DNA from: a virus
DNA: 64,000 nt
Virus record (IMG/VR): IMGVR_UViG_3300024503_000485
Coordinates: 1 to 64,000 of that record
Direction: 5' to 3' (one strand)
Shown: positions 11,649-33,405 of the stretch, in pieces
How the letters are laid out: each line of letters begins with the position of its first letter
Position numbering within the stretch: position 1 is the first letter of the stretch
Translations under genes and position numbers: made by a program
The notes under the pieces: generated by a model
What the model was told of the DNA's origin: nothing
Seen by the model: only the letters and a program-made list of their open reading frames with translations
Database searches by the model: none

Positions 11649-11882
11649 TTAAGCTACCTGAGCAACTGCGTAGATCGCGTTGACTAAAAGTGTTTTAGTA
11701 TCTAGGTCAGTGGCTTCTGCATCAAGTCTATCTGCTCGAACTAGGTCTAACATTAGTTCTCGATATTCATCCGCTGATATACCACCCTGTTGATATTGGC
11801 CAGCAATTTCCAAGGCCATTTGAGCTCTTTGTGCTGCCCAACTTGGGCCATTGGCTGCTAGATGTTGTAGGTGTTCAAACAT
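11649..11882 (-). CDS. hypothetical protein
   Basis: 77-aa ORF. Confidence 0.35.
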   Translation of the reverse strand: MFEHLQHLAANGPSWAAQRAQMALEIAGQYQQGGISADEYRELMLDLVRADRLDAEATDLDTKTLLVNAIYAVAQVA

Positions 11883-12271
11883 TAGAATCTCCCAAGGATA
11901 CTAGCTGCGGCACGCTCTGCTTGTGCTGCCATTAGTTTCTTTTTAATTTCACAATAGACCTTAGAACCCTGTTGTGTCTGTGCTCGAGTAACCATGTCTC
12001 CTACGGTTTCCTGTAAGGGTTTGATAATGTTAATAACATCCTGATGTCTACGACCAGCGGATTGGCTGTATAATTCAAACCAACGTAGATCCTGTTGTAT
12101 CTTTAGTACCTGTGGTAACTGCTCTTGAGAGCAGTCCAAACGATCAATGTCTGCACGAACATCGATTATTCTAGAACTTTGATTAGGATCCGAAAAACTA
12201 GGAATCATGCCTACTAGGCTTGAGCAGCCAGAAAGCATGAAAACACATACTAGAGCAATTAGTCTATTCAT
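11882..12271 (-). CDS. lipoprotein
   Basis: Signal and lipobox LSGCSS. Confidence 0.5.
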   Translation of the reverse strand: MNRLIALVCVFMLSGCSSLVGMIPSFSDPNQSSRIIDVRADIDRLDCSQEQLPQVLKIQQDLRWFELYSQSAGRRHQDVINIIKPLQETVGDMVTRAQTQQGSKVYCEIKKKLMAAQAERAAASILGRF

Positions 12272-12286
12272 AAAAATATTTAGTTC

Positions 12287-12868
12287 TTAGGCTAGATTAA
12301 ATGCTATGCTGACTCGCTGTTTATCTGTGCGGTTAACTCCTACCTTGTGTGTTAACCAACTAGGAAACATGATCAAAGTTCCTGTTTTTGGCTGTATATG
12401 ATGGCTCTGACGTTGTGGCAGTAGATCTGCGGGCCATAGTCTAAGATGATCTACAGGGTTAGGGCTTTTAAAGGTTAAATTACCCTCATCACCATCTGCT
12501 TGATAATAGTAGCAGCCCGAAATAGCTCGTTCCGGATGTACATGATCGTACATGAAGTTTTTGGGCTCGTAGATATTGACCCAGCTGTCTGTGAGCCTAA
12601 AGGGTCTAACTGGATATTTGATAAAATTACACCAATCACGTAGACTTTCAAATATAGAGTCAGTTAGGTGGTTCATGCCCAGGTCCACAATATCGTTGGA
12701 GCCGTCAAATTTAAAGCTGGAACTAACTTCGTCGTCCCAGGGATTATCCTTGACTTCCAACTGGTCTAATGCTTGTTTGATCTGTGCCTGTACTCGATCT
12801 AGTTCTTCGCCCTCTAGTTCACGTACATAAACAGGAGCATAAAATAAGTGTAGTTTTTGTGATTTCAT
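12287..12868 (-). CDS. 2OG-Fe(II) oxygenase family protein (paralog 3)
   Basis: FPSWLTHKV signature. Start trimmed to MKSQK to abut the upstream gene. Confidence 0.5.
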   Translation of the reverse strand: MKSQKLHLFYAPVYVRELEGEELDRVQAQIKQALDQLEVKDNPWDDEVSSSFKFDGSNDIVDLGMNHLTDSIFESLRDWCNFIKYPVRPFRLTDSWVNIYEPKNFMYDHVHPERAISGCYYYQADGDEGNLTFKSPNPVDHLRLWPADLLPQRQSHHIQPKTGTLIMFPSWLTHKVGVNRTDKQRVSIAFNLA

Positions 12869-13476
12869 TTGAATACCAAGTAAGTTGAAAGAATGTATTT
12901 GGTTTGTCCGTCTTGGGGCATAAGCCCTGCATGAGGAAAATGCCAAGTGGGTGTGAATATACAGAGCCGACCTCGACGAGCAGCCACGGTCATGTTTTCC
13001 AAAGGAAACTCTGTGCCAGCGTCCGAATCGTTGAGATAAAACAAACAGGCCAAAAATCTAGATGAAGTTTCTAGGGTAGTATTATCAGCGTGTAGTTTAA
13101 ACTCATGACGACCATTGGGTCTATAGCATTTGATTCTAAAACCCTCTAGGGCAAAGTCATAGGGCAAGATGTTTAGAGTGTCCCAATCACGCTTATAGTC
13201 ACTGACCAAGGGTATGACCCTAGCTGAGAGTTGATCGCAGGTCTCAGTCCAATCATAGGCCCAGTGGCTGCTTTTCTTATAAAGATCCCAGGGATTACGA
13301 GCCTGAGGGTGGCGTGTAGAGTGTAGATCTAATTCAATTAATTTGGCCCACTCGCCCGGACGTTCCTTATGGAATCGAGCGCAGAGTTCAAAGGCCTTGA
13401 CCATTTCATCGCAGAATTCTGGGTCAAGGGCAGCGTCAATGACCCGTATGTAGTTTTTGTCGTAGACTATTTCCAT
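12865..13476 (-). CDS. prolyl-4-hydroxylase-like 2OG-Fe(II) oxygenase
   Basis: HxD (LHADN) and distal His (WHFPHAG) in a P4Hc-like arrangement. Confidence 0.55.
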   Translation of the reverse strand: MEIVYDKNYIRVIDAALDPEFCDEMVKAFELCARFHKERPGEWAKLIELDLHSTRHPQARNPWDLYKKSSHWAYDWTETCDQLSARVIPLVSDYKRDWDTLNILPYDFALEGFRIKCYRPNGRHEFKLHADNTTLETSSRFLACLFYLNDSDAGTEFPLENMTVAARRGRLCIFTPTWHFPHAGLMPQDGQTKYILSTYLVFK

Positions 13477-13496
13477 GCAGTATTTACTGCTGGGGC

Positions 13497-14339
13497 CTAG
13501 CTGCCAAATACGATTGTGAATGCTGTTTGTCTAAGGGCCAGGTTATCCACATAGGCCTTGGTAGTGGCCTGAAGGGGTTCTGTTACTGCTTCTGTTAGGC
13601 TAAGGGTACCCAGGGTAGTTATGTGTAGCCATTGGGGGTCTGTGTATTCTTGAGTTTCTAAAACAGCACCCTCTTGATAGGGCCCTGTTTCAAGCTCAAA
13701 GTTTAAGACATAGTCAGGGCCAGTGCCTTCAATGGTCACTGAGCTGCCCGAGCCCGAGGGTCTAGTTGTAACAGAGCCTATGCTGATCTCAGGTGCAGGG
13801 CCTGCGACATAGCCAGCTACCTGTTCACGCCCATCCGACCAGCGATATATGAGATTGCCCGTGGCTGTGTCTACTCTAAGACTTTCTATTTGCTGAGCTG
13901 CGGCCGAAGTTTGTACCACTTCTGTAGTGATCAGCTGTGCCCTAGGCGTTTGAGCAGTTTCATCGCTGACCAAGCCTGAGGTAGTCAAAGCCCAGGTTAG
14001 GCTAAGATTTTCAGCTGTGACAATGTTGTCTGTGGTTAATAGTTCAAGGGGAAACTGAGTGCCCAGAACTGATCTGCCCTTGCGAATGTTCTGTTGATAA
14101 TGATCAAACCAAGCACGTGACCAATCAATTCTATTCTTATACTCTTCACGGTCTATGGTGATGCTGACAATGGTCTGTCCTAGCAGATCCGAGCTAGGCG
14201 GGTTAGCTGTGCGTATTTCCTTACTGGTAAATTTAAGCGCAACTTCTCGAATGGCTCTAGCATTGGCCCTAGTGGGTGTAACTCCTGAGCGTATCAAGGA
14301 GTCTGTGAGCACACGATGTTGATTTTTGGTAAGAGCCAT
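13497..14339 (-). CDS. hypothetical protein (Thr/Ser/Gly-rich, GC-rich codons)
   Basis: 280-aa ORF at the edge of the GC-rich block. Confidence 0.4.
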   Translation of the reverse strand: MALTKNQHRVLTDSLIRSGVTPTRANARAIREVALKFTSKEIRTANPPSSDLLGQTIVSITIDREEYKNRIDWSRAWFDHYQQNIRKGRSVLGTQFPLELLTTDNIVTAENLSLTWALTTSGLVSDETAQTPRAQLITTEVVQTSAAAQQIESLRVDTATGNLIYRWSDGREQVAGYVAGPAPEISIGSVTTRPSGSGSSVTIEGTGPDYVLNFELETGPYQEGAVLETQEYTDPQWLHITTLGTLSLTEAVTEPLQATTKAYVDNLALRQTAFTIVFGS

Positions 14340-14351
14340 ACTAGTATTTAA

Positions 14352-14702
14352 TTAAACCCAGCTGCGACTATGACTTCTAGATAATTCTGGGTATTTGATT
14401 TCAAAGAACACACGATTACGATCAGGCACAAAAAAGTCTATGTCGCCCCCAGGTTGTATACTGAGAAAGCCACCCCACGCTTGTACATCACGCCAAATCT
14501 GTTCAGGATCTAACCCATGTCGAAAGTGATGATATCTATAACAATGATCTGTGATCTGAATCGCCATCCTGTACTTATCCAAAATGGCCGAGCATAATTC
14601 TATAAGCCGCGAAGCGGCAGCGGTAGCGCCATAAATATCAAATGAGGAAATTGCTGTTAATTTTAACTCTAGGCCTAGAGGCATGCTCACAGCTTTGCCC
14701 AC
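14352..14702 (-). CDS. hypothetical protein
   Basis: 116-aa ORF. Confidence 0.4.
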   Translation of the reverse strand: MGKAVSMPLGLELKLTAISSFDIYGATAAASRLIELCSAILDKYRMAIQITDHCYRYHHFRHGLDPEQIWRDVQAWGGFLSIQPGGDIDFFVPDRNRVFFEIKYPELSRSHSRSWV

Positions 14703-14754
14703 AGGGCCTTACAGAAGATCCACATAGAGTGTGTGTGCAGATAAGGATACAGGT

Positions 14755-15012
14755 ATGAAACAACAGGTTTGGTATCTGGTGCATAAAGACACCCAAAGAC
14801 GCTTAAAGTACTACAGGTCTCTTGCGGGTGCTCGTATAGCACAAAGAGCACGTAATCATAGACTGGGCTTTATTGAGCGTGTAGAGCGTGTAGAGATATG
14901 GGATAACTGGGAAGTGGAAAGGTGCAAAAATAAAGCGGGTCTTATCTTAGAAGCAACTTGGTGTATAGTAGAAGACACCGTGGACATTGAGGATTTATAT
15001 GCAGAAGAATGA
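14755..15012 (+). CDS. hypothetical early protein
   Basis: ATG after RBS AAGGA. This is the first plus-strand gene of the GC-rich cassette block. Confidence 0.4.
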   Translation: MKQQVWYLVHKDTQRRLKYYRSLAGARIAQRARNHRLGFIERVERVEIWDNWEVERCKNKAGLILEATWCIVEDTVDIEDLYAEE

Positions 15013-15128
15013 TACGAAACTACAAGCATTACTAGCAAGTATAGTCTTAGTCTTGGTCTACTGGCTGTTTTGGATCATAACACATTAAATACTTGTATAA
15101 CAACAAACAACTACGCAGGAGCGTGTAT

Positions 15129-15332
15129 ATGCGTAATCCAGAAGAAATTTCTAAATGGGTAAGAACAGAACTGGCTAGAGTAAATCCCTATACAGATAAA
15201 CTTAGAGCACATCTTTGGGCAGTGGGTTTTCTAAGTTCAATTATAGCTAGTCTAATATGGGCAGACTCTAAGAACTTGACGAGTTTTAGACTGGCTGTGG
15301 CTGCTAAACTCAAAGAACAAGATAGACTATGA
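15129..15332 (+). CDS. hypothetical small membrane protein
   Basis: RBS CAGGAGCG, one TM segment. Confidence 0.4.
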   Translation: MRNPEEISKWVRTELARVNPYTDKLRAHLWAVGFLSSIIASLIWADSKNLTSFRLAVAAKLKEQDRL

Positions 15333-15792
15333 CCTATAATGGCCCCGCTGTAGAATCAACGTGTACATATATGTAGTATAGGCCTAAAGGCCGAGGGAAC
15401 TATATATACATTCTTACTGAAGGATAAGAATCAAAGATTCTTACTGAGCTGTAGACGTTGATTTTACTGGGGTTTTGCAGCTGGGTCAGTAAGTAGCAAA
15501 AAGTGTGATTTACTGAGCCTAGACTCGCGTACAGGCCCCGCTGCGTAGGGTGTGCGCAAGGAAAAAGTGCAGAAAAGTGTGATAAAGTGTGAAATTGTGT
15601 GGTATTTGAACTATGCCTCATAACCAATTCACCACGGTAGAGTCTACACTAAAAGATTCTAGCCTAGACTCTGCTCAAACGATTCAGAATCCACCATTTC
15701 TCAGGGAGAATCCACCGTGAATCCACCGTGAACTAGTGCTCTTAAACCAGTCTACGGTAGGCGCAAAGTGGCCCCGCTGCTGTAGATTGTGG

Positions 15793-15821
15793 TTGACATA
15801 CTCACGTAATGACTATATAAT
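15793..15821 (+). promoter_or_regulatory. early sigma70-type promoter (GGTTGACA-N17-TATAAT)
   Basis: TTGACA at 15793-15798, TATAAT at 15816-15821. Confidence 0.65.
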
Positions 15822-15828
15822 ATCGCAT

Positions 15829-16083
15829 ATGACACAAAGAGAAGTATTTGAATATAACAATGAAGAAGAAGCCGAAATGGCTCAGATTCATAGTCTACAC
15901 ATTAATCAGAACGCTATAGATTCTGTACAAGCAGAGTTGGCTCGTCAAAGATCACAGCCTAGTCTAGAGGAATGTGAAGACTGCGGTGAAGCTATTCCAC
16001 AGGCTAGACAGCAAATGGTCCCAGGTTGTACACGCTGCGTATACTGCCAAGGCTTATTTGAGCGTCGTAGAGCTGGATACTAA
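15829..16083 (+). CDS. TraR/DksA-family C4 zinc-finger protein
   Basis: C-terminal CEDCGEAIPQARQQMVPGCTRCVYCQ is the dksA/traR C4-type finger. The start sits just downstream of the promoter. Confidence 0.65.
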   Translation: MTQREVFEYNNEEEAEMAQIHSLHINQNAIDSVQAELARQRSQPSLEECEDCGEAIPQARQQMVPGCTRCVYCQGLFERRRAGY

Positions 16084-16153
16084 TAGGCCCCGCTGCTATA
16101 CACACGTACATGTATGCAAAAGAAAAGACTATTATCTAAAAGCAGAGACTCTA

Positions 16154-16452
16154 TGACCCTACCTGATGAACGTTATCGCGCTGTAGAGCAAACACAGCGT
16201 TTTCTAGAATCACTATTAGATTCTGCACAAACTCCCAGAGTACCCAAAAAGATCCGAGATTCAGCAAGAAGTCTGCTGCGCCACTATCCCTCACGTTGGG
16301 ATCTAGATCGTGCAGCAGCAGCTAGTCCTGATGTTTTTATACGTAGACTTGATCCCTTGTACAAGATGGTCAAGACTCATGACATGCAGCAGCGTATGGC
16401 CGAGGATGTGGAAGAAGATCTACGTGAAGCTAAGAATAGAGGTGAACTATGA
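16154..16452 (+). CDS. hypothetical protein
   Basis: ORF MTLPDERYRAVEQ... An alternative upstream ATG at 16114 would overlap a repeat element. Confidence 0.4.
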
Positions 16453-16625
16453 CTAGGATAAAGATTGTTCAACCGGTGGAAGCGGACGGGGAAGTGGCTA
16501 TGACTCCAGAAGAACTAGCACTAGCACAGGCTCGTCAACGTGCTGCGCTGGTGCCTAAATACGGGGAACCTGGCTGGAATCCTGATGCTCGCGACCCCGA
16601 CACTGACACCTTACCCAATCAATAA
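16449..16625 (+). CDS. hypothetical small protein
   Basis: 58 aa, ATGA-coupled to the upstream gene. Confidence 0.35.
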   Translation: MTRIKIVQPVEADGEVAMTPEELALAQARQRAALVPKYGEPGWNPDARDPDTDTLPNQ

Positions 16626-16631
16626 TTAATT

Positions 16632-16705
16632 CACGCATTAGCTCAGTTGGATAGAGCAACAGCCTTCTAAGCTGTGGGTCAGGGGTTCGAATCCCTTATG
16701 CGTGG
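16632..16705 (+). tRNA. tRNA-Arg (anticodon UCU)
   Basis: Manual cloverleaf: acceptor CACGCAT/ATGCGTG, D-stem GCTC/GAGC, anticodon loop CTTCTAA, T-loop TTCGAAT. An encoded CCA follows at 16706-16708. Confidence 0.8.
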
Positions 16706-16712
16706 CCAGTTA

Positions 16713-16787
<75 letters not shown>

Positions 16788-16799
16788 CCACTTGAGAAA

Positions 16800-16832
16800 C
16801 CCTATAGTCAACTCAGCTATAGGGTTTTTTCT
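16800..16832 (+). terminator. rho-independent terminator
   Basis: 8-bp stem CCCTATAG/CTATAGGG followed by T6. Confidence 0.7.
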
Positions 16833-16860
16833 TGTCCAAACGGCTGTGATCGTGTACAAT
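16832..16860 (+). promoter_or_regulatory. sigma70-type promoter (TTGTCC-N17-TACAAT)
   Basis: Lies immediately after the tRNA terminator and drives small ORF 16882-17010. Confidence 0.45.
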
Positions 16861-16881
16861 ATGCATTTAAACAAGGACAGC

Positions 16882-17010
16882 AATGACAGCACTACAGCAA
16901 AAGTTCTACGCTGCGTTAGCCTCGCTACAGCAGCACACAAATTTAGATGACGAAGAACAGCAAGACGCAATTGCTGCACTCGCGCAGCTAATCGAGGATC
17001 ACGTCAAATA
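16882..17010 (+). CDS. hypothetical small protein (42 aa)
   Basis: RBS AAGGA then ATG. Reads MTALQQKFYAALASLQQHTNLDDEEQQDAIAALAQLIEDHVK. Confidence 0.3.
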
Positions 17011-17044
17011 ACCCTAGGCCCTCTAGGGTCTTAGACAAAATTGG

Positions 17045-17073
17045 TTGACATTTTGGCGCAGAGATCGTACAAT
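17045..17073 (+). promoter_or_regulatory. early sigma70-type promoter
   Basis: TGGTTGACA, 17-nt spacer, TACAAT. Confidence 0.65.
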
Positions 17074-17097
17074 ATACATATGTTGAAGGAGCGGCGA

Positions 17098-17418
17098 ATG
17101 CGAGCAAAGAGATCAGATCGTAATCACATCATCTATGAACTACGTGTTAACGGTGAGAACTACATTGGTGTCACAGCCAAGACTGAATCAACTATTAATA
17201 AGAGTGTTCGCGCTCGTGCTGCCAAGCACTTCTATCGTGCCAAAACAGAAACTAAGAATTGGCTGCTTTGCTCAGCTCTACGCAAGCTCAACAGCAAAGA
17301 AGAAATTGAAATCATTGTTCACGAGATTGTTCGTGGCAAAGCCCTGGCCCATAAGCGCGAAGTAGAAATCCGCAGACTGGTAGGCCCTACACTAAACACA
17401 GACACACGAGGAGACTAA
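17098..17418 (+). CDS. small GIY-YIG nuclease-domain protein
   Basis: HIIYELRVNGENYIGVT is a GIY-x10-YIG motif, followed by basic residues. About 106 aa, resembling YhbQ/UPF0213 or a minimal freestanding GIY-YIG protein. Confidence 0.55.
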   Translation: MRAKRSDRNHIIYELRVNGENYIGVTAKTESTINKSVRARAAKHFYRAKTETKNWLLCSALRKLNSKEEIEIIVHEIVRGKALAHKREVEIRRLVGPTLNTDTRGD

Positions 17419-17419
17419 C

Positions 17420-17674
17420 ATGGACTTGACCGTAGAAATGTATCGTATAGATCGTCGCTGCAAAGCGGGCCGAGTACTAGTAATGAAGCAGGACTACACA
17501 GACGTGAGCTGGGCCCAAATGGAGCGCATGTACCCACGTCGTCCACGCTACATCGTAGAGTTTCACGAGACTTGGGTTACAAAGACTAACCTTATGACGG
17601 GCTTGCCCTATCAGGAACGTTACGATACCCCACATTGCTGTTCAGCAGCCAGCGAGACCTACTGGAGCATGTAG
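17420..17674 (+). CDS. hypothetical protein
   Basis: 84-aa ORF. Confidence 0.4.
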   Translation: MDLTVEMYRIDRRCKAGRVLVMKQDYTDVSWAQMERMYPRRPRYIVEFHETWVTKTNLMTGLPYQERYDTPHCCSAASETYWSM

Positions 17675-17677
17675 GGG

Positions 17678-17706
17678 TTGACAACTAGGAATTTTGGCAG
17701 TATAAT
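17678..17706 (+). promoter_or_regulatory. early sigma70-type promoter
   Basis: GGTTGACAAC...TATAAT with 17-nt spacer. Confidence 0.65.
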
Positions 17707-17734
17707 ACAGGCTTACAACGTTAAGGAGCGACCT

Positions 17735-17911
17735 ATGACTAACCCAATCCCTTCTAGCAACATTTGGCACACACCCGCAGATCTCAACGAGCTGCAGGAT
17801 ATGATCAATCAGTTCACAGGCCAGGAAGCTGCGCTGGCTGCACACGTGATGATGTTGACCCTGAACACCTGCCACAAATTAGTCGATGAAGCTATCAAGG
17901 AGGCCGCATGA
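17735..17911 (+). CDS. hypothetical small protein
   Basis: RBS AAGGAGCG, 58 aa. Confidence 0.4.
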   Translation: MTNPIPSSNIWHTPADLNELQDMINQFTGQEAALAAHVMMLTLNTCHKLVDEAIKEAA

Positions 17912-18273
17912 GGTACTGGGACGAACTGCTGCGCGAGCAGCGTAATGGTCTAACCGTGATCGTGGACAAGACCTGGGAAGACTGCTCTATTCGCGATCTC
18001 TTTGATGAAAGCTGCTGTGATGTAGAGGACCTGGAACGTAAGGTTAACAGGGGCGATTTGGATTGGTTTATGCTCAGAGCTCGCGTCATGTACAATGATC
18101 TGGAACTGGGCTCAGAGATCTGTGGAGGGTTCCTCTACGAAGATGCTCGCGATGTGCTGCGTGATGGTATGGCTGACGAGATGATCTGGCAAGCAGAGGA
18201 AGAAGCCAAACGACAATTACCCGGCCTTATTGAAGGGTTATTGCGTGTAGAGGTTGACAAATTGGCTGCGTGA
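17908..18273 (+). CDS. hypothetical protein
   Basis: 121 aa, acidic. Confidence 0.4.
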   Translation: MRYWDELLREQRNGLTVIVDKTWEDCSIRDLFDESCCDVEDLERKVNRGDLDWFMLRARVMYNDLELGSEICGGFLYEDARDVLRDGMADEMIWQAEEEAKRQLPGLIEGLLRVEVDKLAA

Positions 18274-18282
18274 GCATACAAT
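18254..18282 (+). promoter_or_regulatory. early sigma70-type promoter
   Basis: GGTTGACAA, N17, TACAAT. Lies within the 3' end of the upstream ORF. Confidence 0.6.
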
Positions 18283-18309
18283 AGAGACTTAGCAACAAAG
18301 GAGCGCGAT

Positions 18310-18648
18310 ATGCAGACACTTTTTAGCACAGCAGGCGACGGCTTGTGGAGCAACGTAGCAAAGCCTGTACACATTGTAGACATGCAACTTGCCTACATTA
18401 ACGACGAGAGAGATTTTGGCGAGCTGCGTGTTTACTTTAACACTAAGTTTTGGGACGTTAACAAAGACGGTCTCATTTACACAGACAGCAACTTTATTGA
18501 AGAACTGCGCAATTTTTTAATTGCACAAGAACTAACTGACGACTGCGACTACAGCGAGCAAGGCATGCAGGGAGACAACTACGTTAGCTTAGACGTGGGA
18601 GAGGGCTTTATTGCTGCGTGGGATGCAAAGTTTAACTTGTTTGCATAA
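18310..18648 (+). CDS. hypothetical protein
   Basis: RBS AAGGAGCG, 112 aa. Confidence 0.4.
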   Translation: MQTLFSTAGDGLWSNVAKPVHIVDMQLAYINDERDFGELRVYFNTKFWDVNKDGLIYTDSNFIEELRNFLIAQELTDDCDYSEQGMQGDNYVSLDVGEGFIAAWDAKFNLFA

Positions 18649-18654
18649 GCACAA

Positions 18655-18691
18655 AACGGGGGTTGACAACAGCCCCCGTTTATAGTACAAT
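18655..18691 (+). promoter_or_regulatory. early promoter whose -35 sits in a hairpin loop
   Basis: Stem AACGGGGG/CCCCCGTT (18655-18662 and 18673-18680) encloses TTGACAACAG. TACAAT at 18686-18691. Confidence 0.6.
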
Positions 18692-18720
18692 AGACACACA
18701 TTAACACAAAGGAGCGTGAA

Positions 18721-20730: not shown

Positions 20731-20732
20731 GG

Positions 20733-26473: not shown

Positions 26474-26660
26474 AGAGTTTAACTTCAGTTTTCACGTGGT
26501 CTGCGCCGGGGACGGCAAGGCAGACGTGGGCCGAGTCGAAGAAATGATCGATTTGGCCATGCAGGATCTGGTCTACGACGACGAGTTCATCGCCGCCTTG
26601 GACGAGAAGGACAGCGTTACTATTCAAGTAATTCCGCAATTTGGACAAACAAATGGTTGA
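26466..26660 (+). CDS. hypothetical small protein
   Basis: 64-aa ORF. Confidence 0.35.
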   Translation: MPREFNFSFHVVCAGDGKADVGRVEEMIDLAMQDLVYDDEFIAALDEKDSVTIQVIPQFGQTNG

Positions 26661-26685
26661 CAAACTTGAATAGTGATGCTACATT
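26657..26685 (+). promoter_or_regulatory. early sigma70-type promoter
   Basis: GGTTGACAAAC, N17, TACATT. Confidence 0.5.
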
Positions 26686-26741
26686 ATTAACATGCCCAAT
26701 AGGCATATCTTTAACACACACACTTTTTGGAGAACTTTAAA

Positions 26742-27044
26742 ATGGCTACAGATAAGAAATTTGCGGTTGCTGGTGTTTCGACACTGGAAGGTAAGACCAA
26801 GCTTCGTTTCGCTAACGATGTTATGCGCATCAAGATCTTGGCAAAGAACGGTCACAAGGATGTTGAGCTCGTTGAGCTGCCATCAGAGATGACCAAGGCT
26901 GAGGCTGTACAACACCTCAAGAGCGTTGGTTTCGGCTCAGGCAATGCTGCTGTACAAGCTGCGATCGCCTACGCTGAGAAGAAGAATCCAGCCCCTAAAG
27001 CTGTTAAGACTACTGCCGCGAAGGCAGAGGCTGTTACCGCTTAA
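26742..27044 (+). CDS. hypothetical protein (Ala/Lys-rich C-terminus)
   Basis: RBS GGAG, 100 aa. Confidence 0.4.
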   Translation: MATDKKFAVAGVSTLEGKTKLRFANDVMRIKILAKNGHKDVELVELPSEMTKAEAVQHLKSVGFGSGNAAVQAAIAYAEKKNPAPKAVKTTAAKAEAVTA

Positions 27045-27075
27045 ATCCGATTCGCTCCCGGTAGCGGTAACCTTG

Positions 27076-27112
27076 GGCCCTAGTATGCACACGTATACTA
27101 GGGCGTTTTTTT
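27076..27112 (+). terminator. rho-independent terminator
   Basis: 10-bp stem GCCCTAGTAT/ATACTAGGGC followed by T8. Confidence 0.7.
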
Positions 27113-27121
27113 TGACTTCGG

Positions 27122-27150
27122 TTGACAACTGGATTAACTGATCATATAAT
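27122..27150 (+). promoter_or_regulatory. early sigma70-type promoter
   Basis: GGTTGACAACTG, N17, TATAAT. Confidence 0.65.
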
Positions 27151-27189
27151 AGTATTAACGAATTGGAGCACAGGAGCTTAAATACACAC

Positions 27190-27516
27190 ATGAGCAAATT
27201 AGAATACCTTGCAAGACCTCTGGTAGCATTCGATGCTTATAACAAAGATCATAGGCGCTACTACGCAGAGTTCCTAGAATACGGTGGATGGGGGCGATGT
27301 CCAGTTCGCTTTATTTGTCCCAGTGATTCCGGTTCAGATCTAACACTAATGATCAAGAACCACCTAACTGAATACTACATTGATCGCGAGTTTGGGGGCG
27401 GCAAACTGCAACAGCTCAAAAGCGAAGAACTCAGCGAAACCGCAGACGAAATGTATCGAAGAGCAGGGAAACTTCGTAAGGAAGCAGCCGCCCTGTTGAA
27501 TCCCAGGAGAACCTAA
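27190..27516 (+). CDS. hypothetical protein
   Basis: 108-aa ORF. Confidence 0.4.
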   Translation: MSKLEYLARPLVAFDAYNKDHRRYYAEFLEYGGWGRCPVRFICPSDSGSDLTLMIKNHLTEYYIDREFGGGKLQQLKSEELSETADEMYRRAGKLRKEAAALLNPRRT

Positions 27517-27902
27517 TGAGCGACCTTGATGTAACCATGATCATCCTTTACGGCCTTGGCCTACTTTCAGGCTGGTGGGCATCTAAGATCTTTCATCTGC
27601 ACCTACTACGCAGCATCCTGAAGGATCTTGGGGTGAGTCAGCAGGATCTACTCGCACTCCTTAACCGATCAGAAGAAGAATCATCCGATGATCCCGAGCT
27701 GGATCAGATCGATATCAAAGTTGAGAAGCATAGTAACACACTCTATGCGTTTCGTAAAGACAACGATCAGTTCCTAGGGCAGGGCAACAGCAAGGAGCAG
27801 CTGATCGAAGCCATGGCGCAGCGTATGAAGAATGTAAGGTTGATCGTGGTTGAGGGCCGTGAATACATGGAGTCCAAAACGGTTGACACGACCGCGGTTT
27901 GA
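27516..27902 (+). CDS. hypothetical membrane-anchored protein
   Basis: N-terminal TM helix. Confidence 0.4.
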   Translation: MSDLDVTMIILYGLGLLSGWWASKIFHLHLLRSILKDLGVSQQDLLALLNRSEEESSDDPELDQIDIKVEKHSNTLYAFRKDNDQFLGQGNSKEQLIEAMAQRMKNVRLIVVEGREYMESKTVDTTAV

Positions 27903-27917
27903 GCTTACAATTGAGTT

Positions 27918-28469
27918 ATGAAAATTACAGAACTCCAGAACCTATACCGCGCAGGCCAGATCATCCGCAAGGCAGATCACGCAGACAAGTTGGACATCCA
28001 ATTGGATCCCACAATGACTCGCGAGCTGTTTCGACAAGAAGTTGGCCGTGTTTACTTCATCGTAGTCAACGGTGAAATCAAGAAGATTGGCGGCTCACAG
28101 GCCAAGGGCGGACTCAAGGGAACCTTAGGGGCCTACTTCACTGGTTTTGCCAAGGGCATGAGCGCCAGGACCTATTGCGTATGGAACTTCATGCGCCAGC
28201 AGATCGATCAAGGGCACACGGTTGAGATCTATGTTACATTTGCTCCCCTGGTTGAAGCAACCATTCCAGGTCCCCTGGGACATGTAACCGTACACATTCC
28301 TGTAGACTATCATACCATTGAGAAGAGCTACGTGGATCACTTCGTGCTGGTCGAGAGCAAGCATCCTTACTTGAACATGCAGGAAAGTGCGGGCCGTTGG
28401 GAAGATACGGGGCTTTTAGAAGGCTATCACGGGCTTTGGGTTCCACAACAAGAAACCCTAGCAGCCTAA
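27918..28469 (+). CDS. hypothetical protein
   Basis: 183 aa. It has two His-x-Thr-like segments (GHTVEI, GHVTVH), but assignment to the 2H phosphoesterase family is not secure. Confidence 0.4.
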   Translation: MKITELQNLYRAGQIIRKADHADKLDIQLDPTMTRELFRQEVGRVYFIVVNGEIKKIGGSQAKGGLKGTLGAYFTGFAKGMSARTYCVWNFMRQQIDQGHTVEIYVTFAPLVEATIPGPLGHVTVHIPVDYHTIEKSYVDHFVLVESKHPYLNMQESAGRWEDTGLLEGYHGLWVPQQETLAA

Positions 28470-28488
28470 GGGTTATTCAAAAAAGTGG

Positions 28489-28518
28489 TTGACAACAGCC
28501 TCTAGATCGCATATAATA
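28489..28518 (+). promoter_or_regulatory. early sigma70-type promoter
   Basis: GGTTGACAACAGCC, N18, TATAAT. Confidence 0.6.
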
Positions 28519-28548
28519 CAAGCTCAACAAACAACTTAGGAGCGAAAC

Positions 28549-28902
28549 ATGGAAGCACAAGCACGTGAGTATTTTGTCCGTCGTCTTAACGAAGTAGCAC
28601 AAGAAAAAGTGCAGGCCAAAGCAGTAGAACTTTACGGCGCAAGTGGCCGTCCAGAACAGCCTACTTGGGGCATGGTGTTTGAGGGCATTAAATCCGGCGA
28701 GATTACCCTTAAAGCAGACAAGGTGGACTATACGGGTCCTTACCTCAACCCTACGGACGTGGAGTGGCCTGCTATGGAAGCCAAAAAGGCAGAGCTGGAA
28801 GCATATCGCAAGTTGGTAGCCGCTGAGAAGCAACGGGCTATGGACGCTGTCTATTTGGACGAGAGCGCACAAGAAGCCCTTAAGGCTTTTGAAGCAATTT
28901 AA
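28549..28902 (+). CDS. hypothetical protein
   Basis: RBS TAGGAGCG, 117 aa. Confidence 0.45.
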   Translation: MEAQAREYFVRRLNEVAQEKVQAKAVELYGASGRPEQPTWGMVFEGIKSGEITLKADKVDYTGPYLNPTDVEWPAMEAKKAELEAYRKLVAAEKQRAMDAVYLDESAQEALKAFEAI

Positions 28903-28910
28903 ACAACAAA

Positions 28911-28936
28911 AGCCCTACACTCCGTAGGGCTTTTTC
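28911..28936 (+). terminator. rho-independent terminator
   Basis: Stem AGCCCTAC/GTAGGGCT followed by T5. Confidence 0.65.
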
Positions 28937-28965
28937 TTGACCTTTTGGCACTTTGGACATATAAT
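28937..28965 (+). promoter_or_regulatory. early sigma70-type promoter (TTGACC-N17-TATAAT)
   Basis: Directly abuts the terminator. Confidence 0.6.
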
Positions 28966-28989
28966 ACACTTACACAGAAGGAGAAGTGT

Positions 28990-29172
28990 ATGAGAGTAGA
29001 AGTCAAAAGCCTATACAGAGTTCAATGCACAGAGTATGAAAGAGGCTATGGTCAAAGGGACATGGGTGTGGTGTTCTTTGACACAGAAGAAGAAGCCAAG
29101 CAGTTCTGCCTAGAATACGCCTCGGGTGATAGCGAATGCTACTTCCGAGCAAGCTACGAAAAGATCAACTAA
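28990..29172 (+). CDS. hypothetical small protein
   Basis: RBS GAAGGAGAAG, 60 aa. Confidence 0.4.
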   Translation: MRVEVKSLYRVQCTEYERGYGQRDMGVVFFDTEEEAKQFCLEYASGDSECYFRASYEKIN

Positions 29173-29188
29173 TTCTAGAAAGCCTAAA

Positions 29189-29425
29189 ATGAAAAGCAAA
29201 GACACACAGATCTACAAGAACATTGGCTCTATCCAGGCAGTACAGGGTGACGAAGGCCGCTACTACTTCTACACTCACTTTGCTACAGGTAACACCTGCG
29301 ACGAAGACACTATCAAAGGTGCCAAAGAGATGTTGGATTGGGAAGAAAAGAACCATCAAGAAGTACAGGCTGCGATCCGTGTGCTTCAGGGTCGAGGTTA
29401 CAGAGTATTCAAAGAGGTTTGTTAA
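29189..29425 (+). CDS. hypothetical small protein
   Basis: 78-aa ORF. Confidence 0.35.
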   Translation: MKSKDTQIYKNIGSIQAVQGDEGRYYFYTHFATGNTCDEDTIKGAKEMLDWEEKNHQEVQAAIRVLQGRGYRVFKEVC

Positions 29426-29664
29426 TGGGATGGGTAGTCTACGATGCTCGTACGGGGCACATGCAAAAGTATTACAAGCTGGCCCGTACAGCCAAGAGTA
29501 TCGTCACGCAGCACAACACAGAACGAATCTATGAGGACTGGATCTATCGTCCTCAGAGCACTTGGGCCTGCTGCTCCTATGCAGACTACGAAGGGATCTT
29601 AATGGGTCTGCGTGGGGAAGCGTTTAAGATGTGGCAGTTTGTTAAGAATAACCCGCAGAGCTAA
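29425..29664 (+). CDS. hypothetical small protein
   Basis: TAATG coupling to the upstream gene, 79 aa. Confidence 0.35.
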   Translation: MGWVVYDARTGHMQKYYKLARTAKSIVTQHNTERIYEDWIYRPQSTWACCSYADYEGILMGLRGEAFKMWQFVKNNPQS

Positions 29665-29681
29665 AGGGTCTTTCTTTTTGG

Positions 29682-29710
29682 TTGACCTTTGGGCCTTTTG
29701 GTGCTATACT
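29682..29710 (+). promoter_or_regulatory. early sigma70-type promoter (GGTTGACC-N17-TATACT)
   Basis: Consensus -35 and -10 with a 17-nt spacer. Confidence 0.6.
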
Positions 29711-29733
29711 ATAGGTATAGTAAGGAGCGTGAA

Positions 29734-29982
29734 ATGATAACAGAAAAACAACGTGTTGTAAATGCCCTAAAGGGTTGGCAGTTCATCCGTGGAACCCATG
29801 GTTGCTTGTATGATCGTGGCTCAGCAGATTCCTACTACGGCCGTCCACGTCAACCTCACTACGGTGGAGTGGGAGGCGATTCCGGCCGCCGAGTCTCGGT
29901 CAACGATGCTGCATCCGTGGCCGAATACTTGGCAGGCTACGACTACAACGAGCGTTATGGAGACAAAAAGAACTATGATTAA
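29734..29982 (+). CDS. hypothetical protein
   Basis: RBS TAAGGAGCG, 82 aa. Confidence 0.4.
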   Translation: MITEKQRVVNALKGWQFIRGTHGCLYDRGSADSYYGRPRQPHYGGVGGDSGRRVSVNDAASVAEYLAGYDYNERYGDKKNYD

Positions 29983-30199
29983 TCATGGCCTACAATGGCT
30001 GGGCACAGCCGCTCTGATCTCTATGTATATTGTGATGAGCTTCTTTCCTGAGCGATATCCGCTGAATATCCTCTTAGGATTACTGGGAGGTCTATGCTAT
30101 TTTGCGTGGTCGTATCGTGTGGCAAATAAGCCACAGATGATCGTTAACTTCGCAGGAATAGCCGTGTGTGCCGCAGGGTTATTTCGTTATTTTGATTGA
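29976..30199 (+). CDS. small membrane protein
   Basis: Two TM helices; overlaps the upstream stop. Confidence 0.35.
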
Positions 30200-30224
30200 C
30201 ACTCAGGCACTTTGGCTATACAAT
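30196..30224 (+). promoter_or_regulatory. early sigma70-type promoter (TTGACA-N17-TACAAT)
   Basis: Consensus -35 and -10 with a 17-nt spacer. Confidence 0.55.
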
Positions 30225-30256
30225 TAACACATACGCTAAACAACTAGGAGCAGAAA

Positions 30257-30439
30257 ATGGTTACACAAGCACAGGCAATGTTTGTATTTGTAGTAGGACT
30301 ACTAATCACAATGTTGGGCACAGGTGGTGTAGAAGCCAGCATCTCTAACCTAGAACTTCTACAAGGTCTAGCAGTGGCCATCACTGGCCTAGGCTGTATG
30401 GGCTGTGGTGTGCTCATGCTTAGGCAAGCCGAGGACTAA
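30257..30439 (+). CDS. small membrane protein
   Basis: RBS TAGGAGCAG, two TM helices. Confidence 0.4.
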   Translation: MVTQAQAMFVFVVGLLITMLGTGGVEASISNLELLQGLAVAITGLGCMGCGVLMLRQAED

Positions 30440-30440
30440 T

Positions 30441-30752
30441 ATGGAAGCCCTAGTTGAAACAACTGGGGGCCAGTTCCCCGCGCACACATATCTACTAGAC
30501 GGTACTACCCTAGTAGCCTATGTAAAGGTCAACGAAACTACGCCCGTCTATTTCAAAAGCGGTATCAAGGGCTTTGATAAGCGTGGTAGGCAGTTCGTTA
30601 AGGGTAACATCAACTTATTCAAAGTAAAGGCAACTAATGACACAAGATCTGTCCAAGGCTCAAAAGGCCAAGTCTACTCAGTCAACGACGCAGAGAAAAC
30701 CTGTACCTGTCCAGGATTTACATTTAGAGGTACCTGCAAACACTTGGGCTAA
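30441..30752 (+). CDS. SWIM-type zinc-finger small protein
   Basis: C-terminal CTCPGFTFRGTCKH matches CxCxnCxH. Confidence 0.45.
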   Translation: MEALVETTGGQFPAHTYLLDGTTLVAYVKVNETTPVYFKSGIKGFDKRGRQFVKGNINLFKVKATNDTRSVQGSKGQVYSVNDAEKTCTCPGFTFRGTCKHLG

Positions 30753-30773
30753 CATGATAAAGGTATTGATGCA

Positions 30774-31001
30774 ATGAGCATACAACTACACGGACTGACC
30801 CGCCAGCAGTATCAGATCGCTGACATGATCTGGAGCTGTGAATCACAAGAGGATGTTCAACGCTTGATCAATAACCTGCCCGCAGAGTATAAGAAGGACG
30901 CTGTGGTCATACACGATCTAATGATAGCAGCAGTCATGGACCAACATATGGAGATCACTGAAGATGTTCGTGCGCTTATTCATAGTATTGCTAGCCGCTA
31001 G
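30774..31001 (+). CDS. hypothetical small protein
   Basis: 75-aa ORF. Confidence 0.35.
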   Translation: MSIQLHGLTRQQYQIADMIWSCESQEDVQRLINNLPAEYKKDAVVIHDLMIAAVMDQHMEITEDVRALIHSIASR

Positions 31002-31170
31002 CTTAACAGCCTGCACAGCCTTTAGGGATCCACGTGATGCTGCGTGGGATCCTAGGCAGGATCAAGGTCGTTACCTTCACGAACAGATTCCAAATTGGCA
31101 GCATGAAGCCCTCAGAGTCTGTGGTGGTGGTGACCGAGTGAGGAGACCTGGTATGACCGATCGGTGTTGA
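30964..31170 (+). CDS. putative lipoprotein/secreted small protein
   Basis: Signal-like LLAASLTAC. Confidence 0.3.
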   Translation: MFVRLFIVLLAASLTACTAFRDPRDAAWDPRQDQGRYLHEQIPNWQHEALRVCGGGDRVRRPGMTDRC

Positions 31171-31641
31171 TGGTCGGTCGGTGGTCGGTGGTGAGGGGTA
31201 ACATATGTTAGTAAGTACTAACAAGCTAGTAAGGGGTAGCAAATCACCACCCTGAAAAGAAAAGTACTGCCCTTAAAAATTTTGCGCGGCCAATTTTTTC
31301 CCCTGTAGACCCATTTTGCTGTAAATACACTCATGAAAGATCAAATTGAACGTAACGGGCGACTCTATGAGTACTCAGCCACTGACGATTGTTGGTATCC
31401 TGTGCCCACTGAAGACCAGTATGATTTTCAACGTTTTGTTATTTTTATCAGCACAATTCTAGTTATTTGTTATCTAGCCTATGCAACACTCACATAATTA
31501 TATTGGCCCACATTGGCGTAGTAGTCTGCCATTTTACCCATGGACCATACTTGCTCGTAGGCCCGAATTTGTCGCTGATCCCTTGTTGAATCAAAAGAGC
31601 TCATGGGAGTTCAAGCCCGATCCTGTTATACATCCTAAACT

Positions 31642-31839
31642 ATGATAGAATACGCTGTACTCACACGGGATCCTGATTTTTTGAAGTTTGCGGAATTTAT
31701 ACAAGCACACAATCTCAGCCACGAAATACATCTTAATCGTACTCGTGTACACCTAGTTGAAAACTCTAGTCTACACCTAGAGTTTTTATTGAGATTTCCC
31801 AGTGCTTTTCCCATAACCACTTTCACGGAGTCGCTATGA
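31642..31839 (+). CDS. hypothetical small protein
   Basis: 65-aa ORF. Confidence 0.3.
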   Translation: MIEYAVLTRDPDFLKFAEFIQAHNLSHEIHLNRTRVHLVENSSLHLEFLLRFPSAFPITTFTESL

Positions 31840-32390
31840 CTGAACCTAGAATAATACCTAATTTATTAGGCCCCAGCACATTTGAATATGCACAATCACG
31901 TTTTACGGATCTAGGCATACACTGGTACTACATGCCCGTGACCAGCTGTGAAAAAGATCAAATGCAGTATGCAGGCAGCTTTAGTCATTTGATCTATAAA
32001 AATGGAGAACCCATTAGTCCCTTATGGGATCTTAGTCTACAGATACTCTTAGCTGCCTGTGATCATCACGGTGAACGACTAGCAGAAATTGCTCGTGTTA
32101 GACTGGGCTTTTGTACTCGTACACCCTATGCTGTGGAGCATACACCGCATCAAGATTTTCAAGGACCGCATCGTACGGGCATATATTACCCTATTACCGC
32201 TGACGGCCCTACTACTATCTACGCAGAGAAAACAGAACAACTTGATGGTGCGTATACTCTGTTGGCTAGTCAACAGCCTAGGGCTAACCTTTGGATGGAC
32301 TTTGACGGCGAACATTTTCACAGCAGCACTACTCCCGTAGATCACGAAAATCGCTTGGTTTTGACCCTAAACTACAGAATACAAGAATAA
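31836..32390 (+). CDS. hypothetical protein, possible 2OG-Fe(II) oxygenase-like
   Basis: His/Asp-containing segments (HTPHQD...HFHSS). Weak evidence. Confidence 0.35.
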   Translation: MTEPRIIPNLLGPSTFEYAQSRFTDLGIHWYYMPVTSCEKDQMQYAGSFSHLIYKNGEPISPLWDLSLQILLAACDHHGERLAEIARVRLGFCTRTPYAVEHTPHQDFQGPHRTGIYYPITADGPTTIYAEKTEQLDGAYTLLASQQPRANLWMDFDGEHFHSSTTPVDHENRLVLTLNYRIQE

Positions 32391-32407
32391 TGTCGTAAAT
32401 ACAAGAT

Positions 32408-32632
32408 ATGCTTCTAGTGTATCTTGAACCTTTTGTTCGTGAGCAAGAGGACCTACTACAATCCTGGCGGGATCTAGTACACTATTGGCCTCGTAGTTAT
32501 GCGCACACAGATGCTTATAACTCTGCTATACCTACAGATTGGTGGCTCTTGTTTAGGGATGCTCGTTACTCTAGTATATGGTTGATCAAATACCCTGAAC
32601 ACTCAAGAATTATGCTGACCTTATTCGACTAA
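32408..32632 (+). CDS. hypothetical protein
   Basis: 74-aa ORF. Confidence 0.3.
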   Translation: MLLVYLEPFVREQEDLLQSWRDLVHYWPRSYAHTDAYNSAIPTDWWLLFRDARYSSIWLIKYPEHSRIMLTLFD

Positions 32633-32715
32633 AAAATCTTGCGCTTGGCGCTTCGCGCTAAAAAATTGCGCTGCGGCTTCGCCGATCTTGATAAATATTC
32701 GAAACAGGAGCAATC

Positions 32716-32922
32716 ATGCCACAGGCCTATAAAATCATGGCACGTAACACTAGAACAGGTGTCAGAATACAAAAACAATTTCTAGATGGAGCCACCGTCA
32801 CAAACTATGATATGGCTCTAGAACACGCTCAAGATCTAGCTCAGCGTCAAAGTTCACGCAGTCGCGAAACTTGGGTGGGCGAAGTAGAAATCTACACCGT
32901 GGGCAACAAGCCCGGTCAGTGA
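32716..32922 (+). CDS. hypothetical small protein
   Basis: RBS ACAGGAGCAATCATG, 68 aa. Confidence 0.4.
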   Translation: MPQAYKIMARNTRTGVRIQKQFLDGATVTNYDMALEHAQDLAQRQSSRSRETWVGEVEIYTVGNKPGQ

Positions 32923-33350
32923 TACATATAGTTCACTGAATCTTCATTTTCCCTAAATGTCTCGGCCCCGTTTTTATGATGAAAACGTCGGGCCATTTCT
33001 GTCTTTGGACTTAGAGTAACAAAGGTCTTGACTTCGGGGCTGTTTTCTTTGATGTCTGCCTGTGCTTGTGTGATCAACTCACGACCTGCACCTGCGGCAT
33101 AGCTCCAAATGGTATAGAACACAGCAGTGGTAGAGTTTACTGCTAGATTGGCTAGATCATCAACATTCTTAGGAATGTCTGCTAGAAACTTAACACAGGT
33201 CACAGCCAAAGGACGGTTTTCTTCATCTTTGAGTACATAGACCTTGCCGTGTTCGTCAACTCGAAAGTCCGCAGGAATTTCTGGACGCACAGGATCGTCT
33301 TTGAGTAGGCTCAATAGTTCTTCGTTGATGGTGGTGATTTTTTCTAGCAT
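32916..33350 (-). CDS. GNAT-family N-acetyltransferase (putative)
   Basis: YAAGAGRELI resembles acetyl-CoA motif A (Q/RxxGxG/A). 144 aa. Confidence 0.4.
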   Translation of the reverse strand: MLEKITTINEELLSLLKDDPVRPEIPADFRVDEHGKVYVLKDEENRPLAVTCVKFLADIPKNVDDLANLAVNSTTAVFYTIWSYAAGAGRELITQAQADIKENSPEVKTFVTLSPKTEMARRFHHKNGAETFRENEDSVNYMYH

Positions 33351-33405
33351 GATGTTAATGATTATATAACATTACTTATCATCTTGTCAATAAAACTAGC
33401 AGATA

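Follow-up and report, generated by a model that had tools for sequence, protein, structure and literature searches.

Relation to described systems

The element examined here is a block of about 22 kb, rich in guanine plus cytosine (GC), within a 64,000-nucleotide stretch of viral DNA (IMG/VR record IMGVR_UViG_3300024503_000485, positions 1 to 64,000; hereafter the window), and it resembles several systems described in phages. In T4, immediate-early genes are written in host-preferred codons and later genes use codons of tRNAs brought in by the phage; temporal codon-usage classes and phage tRNAs in T4 were reportedly treated by Cowe & Sharp 1991 and Kunisawa 1992. The model is also known from lambda, and early genes whose codon use resembles that of the host have been described (PMC5683454); codon usage and tRNAs were also studied in other phages (PMC5737525). 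In the consulted sections of Arbiol et al. (2010, PMC2839356) and Comeau et al. (2014, PMC4122927), PeSLs (promoter-early stem-loops) are presented as composites of a stem-loop and a near-consensus sigma70 promoter that mediate insertions and deletions (indels) in hyperplastic regions of T4-type phages, the phages concerned being RB49/phi1, PST/T4 and nt-1/KVP40. The Pseudomonas jumbo phage PA5oct depends on the host RNA polymerase and has TTGAC/TATAATA promoters, its early region lies in a long terminal repeat and contains many small genes that are highly transcribed early, and it was reported to encode TilS (Lood et al. 2020, PMC7318152).

On our reading the block is a strong variant of two of these phenomena, the shuffling of PeSL cassettes and the division of codon usage into temporal classes with phage tRNAs. 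Like the PeSL regions as presented in those sections, it repeats near-perfect TTGACA-N17-TATAAT promoters many times, some of them with an upstream stem-loop, among small ORFans, and indels and relocations between close relatives end at this motif. Unlike in the PeSL phages, the lineage is that of a PA5oct-related jumbo phage and not of a T4-type (Tevenvirinae-like) myovirus, hairpins are present at about half of the promoters and have the stem motif AACCCT-loop-AGGGTT, and the block is one array of 15-20 kb with a distinct base composition, a feature of which the consulted sections of the PeSL papers contain no mention. As in the codon classes of T4, the putative early genes of the block and the later genes differ in synonymous codons, and the phage tRNAs read codons common in the later genes (AGA, and probably AUA). 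However, the magnitude is much larger here (GC at third codon positions, GC3, of 0.50-0.60 vs 0.26-0.36), giving one unbroken domain that already shows in raw GC, and the contrast is kept across a whole clade with a measurable separate substitution equilibrium. With the early region of PA5oct the block shares small genes on one strand, sigma70-type promoters and AAA ATPase, MoxR, VWA and tRNA genes in the same neighbourhood, but the PA5oct region has 27-40% GC without contrast and the amino-acid identity is only about 50%. The atypical GC, the tRNA genes and the many ORFans are also reminiscent of a genomic island; unlike an island, the block is conserved and syntenic, carries no amelioration signal and no mobility genes, and has the phylogenetic affinity of the backbone. 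A literature search for early regions that are GC-richer than the rest of the phage genome returned nothing relevant.

A conserved GC-rich domain native to the phage

Entropy segmentation and a 1-kb composition profile showed a contiguous GC-rich domain of about 22 kb (12,901-34,710; GC 0.462). Segmentation divided it into a core (12,901-31,200; GC 0.470) and a tail (31,201-34,710; GC 0.421), compared to GC 0.387 in the left flank (1-12,900) and 0.356 in the right flank (34,711-64,000). The GC-rich block of about 22 kb described in the initial annotation of this DNA, made by a model from the letters alone, was thus real and the non-uniform GC was confirmed numerically, although the GC was 46-47% and not about 50%, with flanks of 30-43%. 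The sharp borders that had been placed at 11.6 and 33.4 kb were not recovered: segmentation put them about 1.3 kb further right, and GC changes there in steps, through intermediate zones at 11-16 kb and 31.2-34.7 kb. Per-gene composition gave a GC3 of 0.50 in the core vs 0.26 in the flanks, with smaller differences at the first (GC1, 0.57 vs 0.48) and second (GC2, 0.38 vs 0.35) codon positions; intergenic GC was 0.44 in the core vs 0.34-0.38 in the flanks. The compositional shift is mainly one of third codon positions and mostly synonymous. Dinucleotide signature distances between block and flanks (51-99) overlapped those between flanks (41-69), the distance to the right flank being somewhat above the flank-flank distance, and depletion of CpG and TpA was common to the block and the left flank. 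Within the core, 16000-31200 also showed an excess of GATC, with 131 sites observed vs 85 expected under a maximal-order Markov model (ratio 1.54; flanks 0.98).

Judging from its genes, the phage is an uncultured, PA5oct-related jumbo myovirus with T4-type replication genes. The flanks encode a T4-type gp41-like helicase, a gp61-like primase, a UvsW-like helicase, UvsX, gp32 and a DNA ligase, and PA5oct (Arenbergviridae) was the closest cultured relative for block and backbone genes alike, with amino-acid identities of 51% for MoxR and 47% for the AAA ATPase in the block and 51% for gp41 in the backbone; the giant phages Phosso, SCTP-2 and Atu_ph07 came next. The genome had been taken for that of a marine T4-like phage, a placement that gives way to PA5oct at about 50% amino-acid identity. 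A megablast search against GenBank phages matched the block only at its tRNAs and the backbone not at all, and thus no close cultured relative was found. A search for the host among GTDB genomes with the Bax1-I-like protein was uninformative, giving only phage contigs mis-binned into one betaproteobacterial and one Crocinitomicaceae metagenome-assembled genome, and distant alphaproteobacterial homologues of 38-45% identity.

Look-ups of exact proteins retrieved contigs with 99.6-100% identity from ten independent samples, which piecewise cover the window including both junctions of the block. Contigs from different samples cover 7,115-24,339 (L182) and 24,345-45,025 (L173) at 100% identity, a contig from another sample (L185) covers 3,499-16,771 at 99.96%, and L179 covers 51,577-64,000. 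Several independent assemblies of this strain break off within the block, at about 16640-16770, about 20090 and 31170, and two contigs of one sample meet at the tRNA genes; these breaks are probably caused by co-occurring strains whose identity switches there from about 97% to about 75%.

IMG/VR was found to hold hundreds of relatives, among which MoxR and gp41 occur together on four contigs. A rise in GC from 31-42% to 45-54% was seen a few kb past gp41 in more than 40 related contigs, at a position syntenic with that in the window. Where MoxR shows 81-91% identity, nearly all neighbourhoods have 46-52% GC, with one exception (L037; 81% identity, 31-45% GC). Across relatives, orthologues of block genes have a GC3 of 0.50-0.65 and those of backbone genes 0.29-0.36, also when located on the same contig. 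In a more distant clade (loci L042-L080, MoxR about 73%) the same MoxR/VWA neighbourhood has 33-45% GC and almost no TTGACA-N17-TATAAT promoters. The density of consensus promoters in relatives was 0.99 per kb in GC-rich and 0.21 per kb in AT-rich sequence, and AT-rich MoxR neighbourhoods contain 0-3 such promoters per 20 kb vs 20 or more in GC-rich ones; the L042-L080 loci thus show that high GC and dense consensus promoters co-vary across clades. Since the block is syntenic and GC-rich in relatives, the contrast is a property of the lineage and not a strain-specific acquisition, and on this comparison the block is a conserved domain and not an island. That the block belongs to the phage, as the initial annotation held, is borne out by the near-identical contigs spanning both junctions and by the equal identity of block and backbone to PA5oct, but its implied variable or foreign island was not: the comparison with related phages that it proposed found the block syntenic and of similar composition in these more than 40 contigs.

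Codon choice and substitution equilibrium

The higher GC of the block was shown, by comparison with related phages, to be a maintained and largely codon-specific difference in codon choice. At four-fold degenerate sites the window and its relatives differ at 0.40-0.56, with saturation at 0.67-0.72, and both regions have largely been turned over; since the contrast nevertheless persists, it is maintained. Synonymous third-position changes polarised in triplets of relatives comprised 241 changes from weak (A or T) to strong (G or C) bases and 184 from strong to weak in the block, corresponding to an equilibrium GC3 (GC3*) of 0.60 compared to a current 0.54. In the backbone the counts were 437 and 318, with a GC3* of 0.34 compared to a current 0.27. 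The ratios of substitution rates differed clearly between block and backbone (z = 8.9). Within the GC-rich clade alone, GC3* was 0.61 for the block and 0.40 for the backbone, current values ranging overall over 0.54-0.58 and 0.27-0.34, respectively. Each region thus appears to be near its own GC3 equilibrium, and the block does not appear to decay toward the backbone, which argues strongly against a foreign origin without amelioration.

The difference was found to depend on the codon. In relatives, GC at two-fold degenerate sites was 0.70 in the block vs 0.35 in the backbone, whereas at four-fold sites it was 0.40 vs 0.34. The most depleted codons of the block in relatives were ATA (0.03 vs 0.28) and AGA (0.04 vs 0.31), followed by GGA, TTA and CGA; in the window itself AGA had a frequency of 0.11 in the block vs 0.37 in the flanks. 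The G-ending codons AGG and GGG were depleted in the block as well, and TCA, ACA and CCA were unchanged. AGA, which is read by a tRNA-Arg(UCU) encoded in the block, is depleted in the block and frequent in the backbone. Such a codon-specific pattern would not arise from a mutational or conversion bias that acts uniformly, but it would from selection tied to the availability of tRNAs. A comparison of GC1 and GC2 with GC3 within orthologues was uninformative, because the proteins are constrained.

Two tRNA genes and nothing else were found in the Rfam scan, and ARAGORN gave the same two: tRNA-Arg(TCT) at 16632-16708 (+) and a tRNA(CAT) at 16713-16790 (+), followed by a strong terminator hairpin at 16796-16831 (+; AAACCCTATAG...CTATAGGGTTTTTT). 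The tRNA(CAT) has a G1-C72 pair, C4:G69 and C5:G68 pairs and no GGG/CCC anticodon stem; judging by these stems it is not an initiator, and it may be a tRNA-Ile2 that reads AUA, as C4:G69 and C5:G68 are pairs that we take to be TilS determinants of tRNA-Ile2.

Promoter array and cassette shuffling

The candidate genes between 11,650 and 33,400 number 54, of which 47 are on the + strand; 46 of the 54 are shorter than 200 amino acids (aa), as had been noticed earlier, and the median is 84 aa. Curation of open reading frames (ORFs) and Shine-Dalgarno sites gave an array of about 50 small genes in a single orientation (14755-35585, +), the putative early region, which converges at 35.6 kb on minus-strand replication genes. 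A total of 19 near-consensus sigma70 promoters, TTGAC(A/C)-N17-TAnnnT, were found between 15,793 and 30,196, all on the + strand and all 19 with a spacer of 17; the minus strand of the same interval contained none. Their extended consensus is tGGTTGACA..TG....TAtAATA. The promoter scan as a whole gave 49 promoter-like sites vs 27.5 +/- 5.3 in shuffled sequences, and the excess consisted of the strong sites. The T4-type late-promoter motif TATAAATA was found at three sites, all in the AT-rich right flank (42494-42501, +; 49495, +; 58282, -) and none in the block. The promoters are thus partitioned, the sigma70 array coinciding with the block and the late motifs being confined to the flank, a two-part contrast that we count in favour of an early region.

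According to the initial annotation almost every gene had its own promoter and the same ribosome binding site, and many genes had flanking terminator hairpins. A promoter of its own was found for only 19 among the 39 + strand genes of 15.8-31.2 kb. The leader after the promoter is usually 23-33 nt long and contains an AGGAGC(G) Shine-Dalgarno sequence followed by ATG; the exact string TAAGGAGCG proposed as the common site occurred only four times, but AGGAGC-type sites precede about 12 of the 19 promoter-led genes. A generic terminator scan showed no enrichment (15 found vs 16.2 expected), but hairpins with dG <= -12 were present just upstream of 10 of the 19 promoters vs 22% of control positions (p = 0.009), a modest enrichment. 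The annotation had also pointed to the same promoter type in the AT-rich part; consensus promoters are indeed present at 2653 and 34296, but they lack the block-specific GG before the -35 and the spacer motif. Its comparison with PeSL-type cassettes held up, through the hairpin/sigma70 cassettes, the reordered small genes and a strain comparison in which an indel and a relocation end at promoters.

The small accessory genes located around a collinear core at about 19.2-24.5 kb were found to be patchy, faster diverging and reordered among relatives. A co-occurring sister strain (strain B; contigs L181 and L184) matches the window at 97.4% identity over 6,354-17,420, after which identity drops abruptly to 73-83%. 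The near-identical segment (6354-17420) marks a recent exchange of at least 11 kb between diverged phages, with its right breakpoint at the cassette of promoter 17678. The window contains there an 84-aa gene (17420-17674, +) that is absent from strain B, and the indel (17420-17677) ends at the -35 of promoter 17678. Besides, a cassette at 28489-28902 (+), consisting of a promoter, a leader and a 117-aa gene (28549-28902), was found in strain B with 93% identity but relocated, being placed behind the promoter equivalent to that at 18663; the homology ends exactly at the stop codon, which is followed in strain B by GGGGTTGACA. A PeSL-type mechanism is supported by these results, with the reservations that only about half of the promoters have a hairpin, that the ends at promoters come from one close strain pair (the window and strain B) and that the phage lies outside the T4-type group.

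Interpretation and alternative explanations

The explanation that we favour, with a probability of about 0.58, is that the block is a native, conserved early region of a PA5oct-related phage whose codons are tuned to the transcription and translation machinery of the host. We infer the early and host take-over status of its genes from their promoters and their homology to the PA5oct early region; because the gene numbering of PA5oct in the paper could not be matched to that in RefSeq, we do not assign early status to individual PA5oct homologues. Under this explanation, immediate-early genes would rely for transcription on unmodified host sigma70 RNA polymerase and for translation on the host tRNA pool, and they would therefore carry C- or G-ending two-fold codons and avoid ATA, AGA, GGA, TTA, CGA and AGG. 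Middle and late genes, which are AT-rich, would use ATA, AGA and similar codons freely, because, as we propose, the phage supplies tRNA-Arg(UCU) and probably tRNA-Ile2. Accessory genes move together with their promoters as cassettes, through recombination at conserved promoter and hairpin sequences, as described for the PeSLs of T4-type phages.

Several observations weigh against tuning to the host as the whole account. Intergenic GC, GC1 and GC2 are raised in the block too, which a regional bias at the DNA level would fit as well. The borders of the GC domain are not exactly those of the + strand array, with GC-rich minus-strand genes at 12.9-14.7 kb and + strand genes of lower, intermediate GC3 at 15.1-16.5 and 31.3-35.6 kb, and in relatives GC3 falls stepwise over the convergent operon boundary. 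GC3 within the block does not follow the strength of the promoter or of the Shine-Dalgarno site. The homologous region of PA5oct shows no GC contrast to the rest of its genome, at 27-40% GC. The GC3* values come from parsimony polarisation, which is biased with outgroups up to 22% divergent, and from triplets possibly affected by recombination, and the Ile2 assignment of the tRNA(CAT) is based on acceptor-stem features only.

One rival explanation is a regional process, in which intense cassette recombination or a position in a terminal repeat leads to GC-biased gene conversion or another repair spectrum and thereby to a neutral equilibrium of its own. Recombination breakpoints at cassettes that are reordered among relatives, the raised GC of intergenic sequence and of the first two codon positions, the stepped, gradient-like borders that cross strand and operon boundaries, and the higher GC3* of the block speak for it, and the early region of PA5oct does lie within a long terminal repeat (PMC7318152). 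Such a process would not leave four-fold sites nearly equal in relatives while two-fold sites differ two-fold, nor deplete AGG and GGG and leave several A-ending codons unchanged; long core genes distant from cassettes are equally GC-rich, and PA5oct is without such a bias. We therefore consider a regional process rather unlikely as the explanation, but it may contribute alongside codon selection. Selection on the DNA itself for reasons other than translation, such as evasion of AT-seeking silencers of the H-NS/MvaT/Lsr2 kind or suppression of spurious sigma70 starts that would obscure the true promoters, would account for the raised intergenic GC and for the joint occurrence of dense consensus promoters and high GC across clades (0-3 vs at least 20 per 20 kb). 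It is judged improbable given the codon-specific pattern with its near-equal four-fold sites, and given that the early region of PA5oct is AT-rich although the host of that phage has MvaT-type silencers. A bolder version of these ideas, namely that the early domain resembles an isochore and owes its separate GC equilibrium to a force acting on the DNA rather than to translation, either cassette-fed GC-biased conversion or silencer-evasion selection, appears unlikely to us; if true, it would be a previously undescribed structuring of base composition within a virus genome.

Acquisition or replenishment of the block from a GC-richer pool of phages or hosts, without amelioration so far, would agree with its atypical composition, its many ORFans (seven block genes had no homologue in 160 related loci), the modular exchange that does occur and the somewhat larger dinucleotide distance to the right flank than between the flanks. 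This origin is nevertheless very improbable and already largely refuted: the synteny and GC-richness in more than 40 related contigs stand against it, as do conserved core genes as GC-rich as the accessory ones, a divergence from relatives and from PA5oct that equals that of the backbone, the absence of an excess of strong-to-weak changes with GC3* at or above the current GC3, the depletion of CpG and TpA shared with the left flank, and the lack of integrase or attachment features. That the assembly joins two genomes, as a chimera or through a contaminant, might be suspected from the several same-strain assemblies that break inside the block, but the breaks coincide with the switch of co-occurring strains from 97% to about 75% identity, and L182, L173 and L185 cover the joins at 99.96-100% identity in different samples; these independent assemblies refute the suspicion, and its chance is negligible.

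The block shows that a sharp GC anomaly in a phage need not signal foreign DNA or mis-assembly. Read as a temporal class of genes whose long-term substitution equilibrium is separate, the block would offer a marker of early regions that needs nothing but sequence and could be applied to this abundant uncultured group of jumbo phages, and its preferred codons could aid identification of the host. The many co-occurring strains in public metagenomes provide a natural system for setting codon selection against biased conversion in viruses. In addition, promoter-bounded, PeSL-like cassette shuffling would be extended beyond the classical T4-type phages.

Positions of promoters and hairpins

The -35 elements of the 19 promoters start at 15793, 17045, 17678, 18254, 18663, 19163, 21209, 21902, 23172, 24518, 25259, 25497, 26657, 27122, 27883, 28489, 28937, 29682 and 30196, all on the + strand, and the array ends at 30224. 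In the tail of lower GC, a consensus sigma70 promoter precedes the Bax1-I/YccA-like gene (34296-34324, +), and another with a spacer of 18 was found for the gene at 32916-33350 (33361-33390, -). At 15821-15829 and 27911-27918 the ATG is located 6-7 nt past the -10 hexamer without a Shine-Dalgarno sequence, and the genes of the TraR/DksA protein and of a 183-aa protein are therefore candidates for leaderless transcripts.

An inverted repeat AACCCT-loop-AGGGTT was common to six promoters. A cassette of hairpin (ACCCTAG..CTAGGGT) and promoter is present at 17011-17073 (+), and similar AACCCT-loop-AGGGTT cassettes at 18219-18282, 19129-19191, 28455-28517 and 29651-29710 (all +). A terminator with a 15-bp stem stands directly before promoter 23172 (23126-23200, +), and similar strong terminator-promoter pairs were found at 27077-27150 and 28908-28965 (+). 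At 18640-18691 and 19150-19191 the -35 hexamer sits in the loop of a strong hairpin (e.g., AAACGGGGG-TTGACAACAG-CCCCCGTTT), so that the terminator of the preceding gene overlaps the promoter of the next. The unrelated proteins encoded at 18721-19143 and 27918-28469 share a C-terminal Glu-Thr-Leu, with the stop codon within the hairpin; the shared ends arise because the conserved hairpin arm GAAACCCTAG overlaps both coding 3′ ends.

Gene content of the block and its surroundings

Most of the small block genes matched no PHROG or Pfam family. The conserved collinear core (19225-24434, +), whose genes were found in 37-80 of 80 related loci, comprises an AAA ATPase (19225-20298; phrog_1250), a Cys-rich 80-aa protein (20298-20540), a small membrane protein (20530-20730), an HTH_39 protein (20811-21086), a 214-aa protein (21261-21905), a MoxR-type ATPase (21983-23068) and a DUF2201 metallopeptidase/VWA protein (23226-24434), all on the + strand, with the HTH_39, MoxR and DUF2201 assignments made by Pfam and PHROG scans. 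Sequence searches of PDB gave no match for the AAA ATPase and only generic AAA matches for MoxR. A TraR/DksA-type zinc-finger protein of 84 aa is encoded at 15829-16083 (+; PF01258, E = 7.6e-8; phrog_54), a SWIM finger protein was also matched in the block, and several of its small proteins are very acidic. The candidate take-over factors that had been listed for the block were thereby recovered (TraR/DksA, AAA ATPase, MoxR/VWA, acidic small proteins and the tRNAs), except for a GcrA C-terminal domain: against the GcrA model PF07750 the 20298-20540 protein scored 17 bits, below the cutoff of 26.9. The two best PDB matches of a profile of 19 homologues of this protein were GcrA chains (5yix_B and 7ye1_G), with weak E-values of 0.11 and 0.4, and likeness to the sigma70-interacting C-terminal domain of GcrA is suggestive only. 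The protein was present in 38 of 80 related loci, with invariant C8, G12, C26, Y36, C37 and H40.

At the edges of the block, Pfam and PHROG scans found several 2OG-Fe(II) oxygenases, an AlgH-like protein and a Bax1-I/YccA-like protein, and no integrase or transposase was found in these scans of 10.6-35.6 kb. The left edge (10598-14702, -) contains genes of an AlgH-like DUF179 protein, two 2OG-Fe(II) oxygenases and a 280-aa ORF, with intermediate GC3 values of 0.27-0.46. This ORF (13497-14339, -; GC 0.49) had zero homologues among 160 related IMG/VR loci but was identical in contigs of the same strain and of the sister strain; it belongs to no Pfam family and showed a weak match to a PHROG minor-tail family. 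For the product of 7463-8182, the Gad2 assignment given in a precomputed Pfam table was not reproduced by our own scan.

The most AT-rich part of the window (30-34% GC) contains a cluster of genes for glycan and sugar-nucleotide metabolism (47431-59755, in addition to 514-1449), with a GDP-mannose 4,6-dehydratase, a DegT-type aminotransferase, a nucleotidyltransferase/cupin protein, a CAP59-like mannosyltransferase and a UDP-glucose dehydrogenase-like protein. Just left of the window, contig L177 adds epimerase, kinase and ClpP genes.

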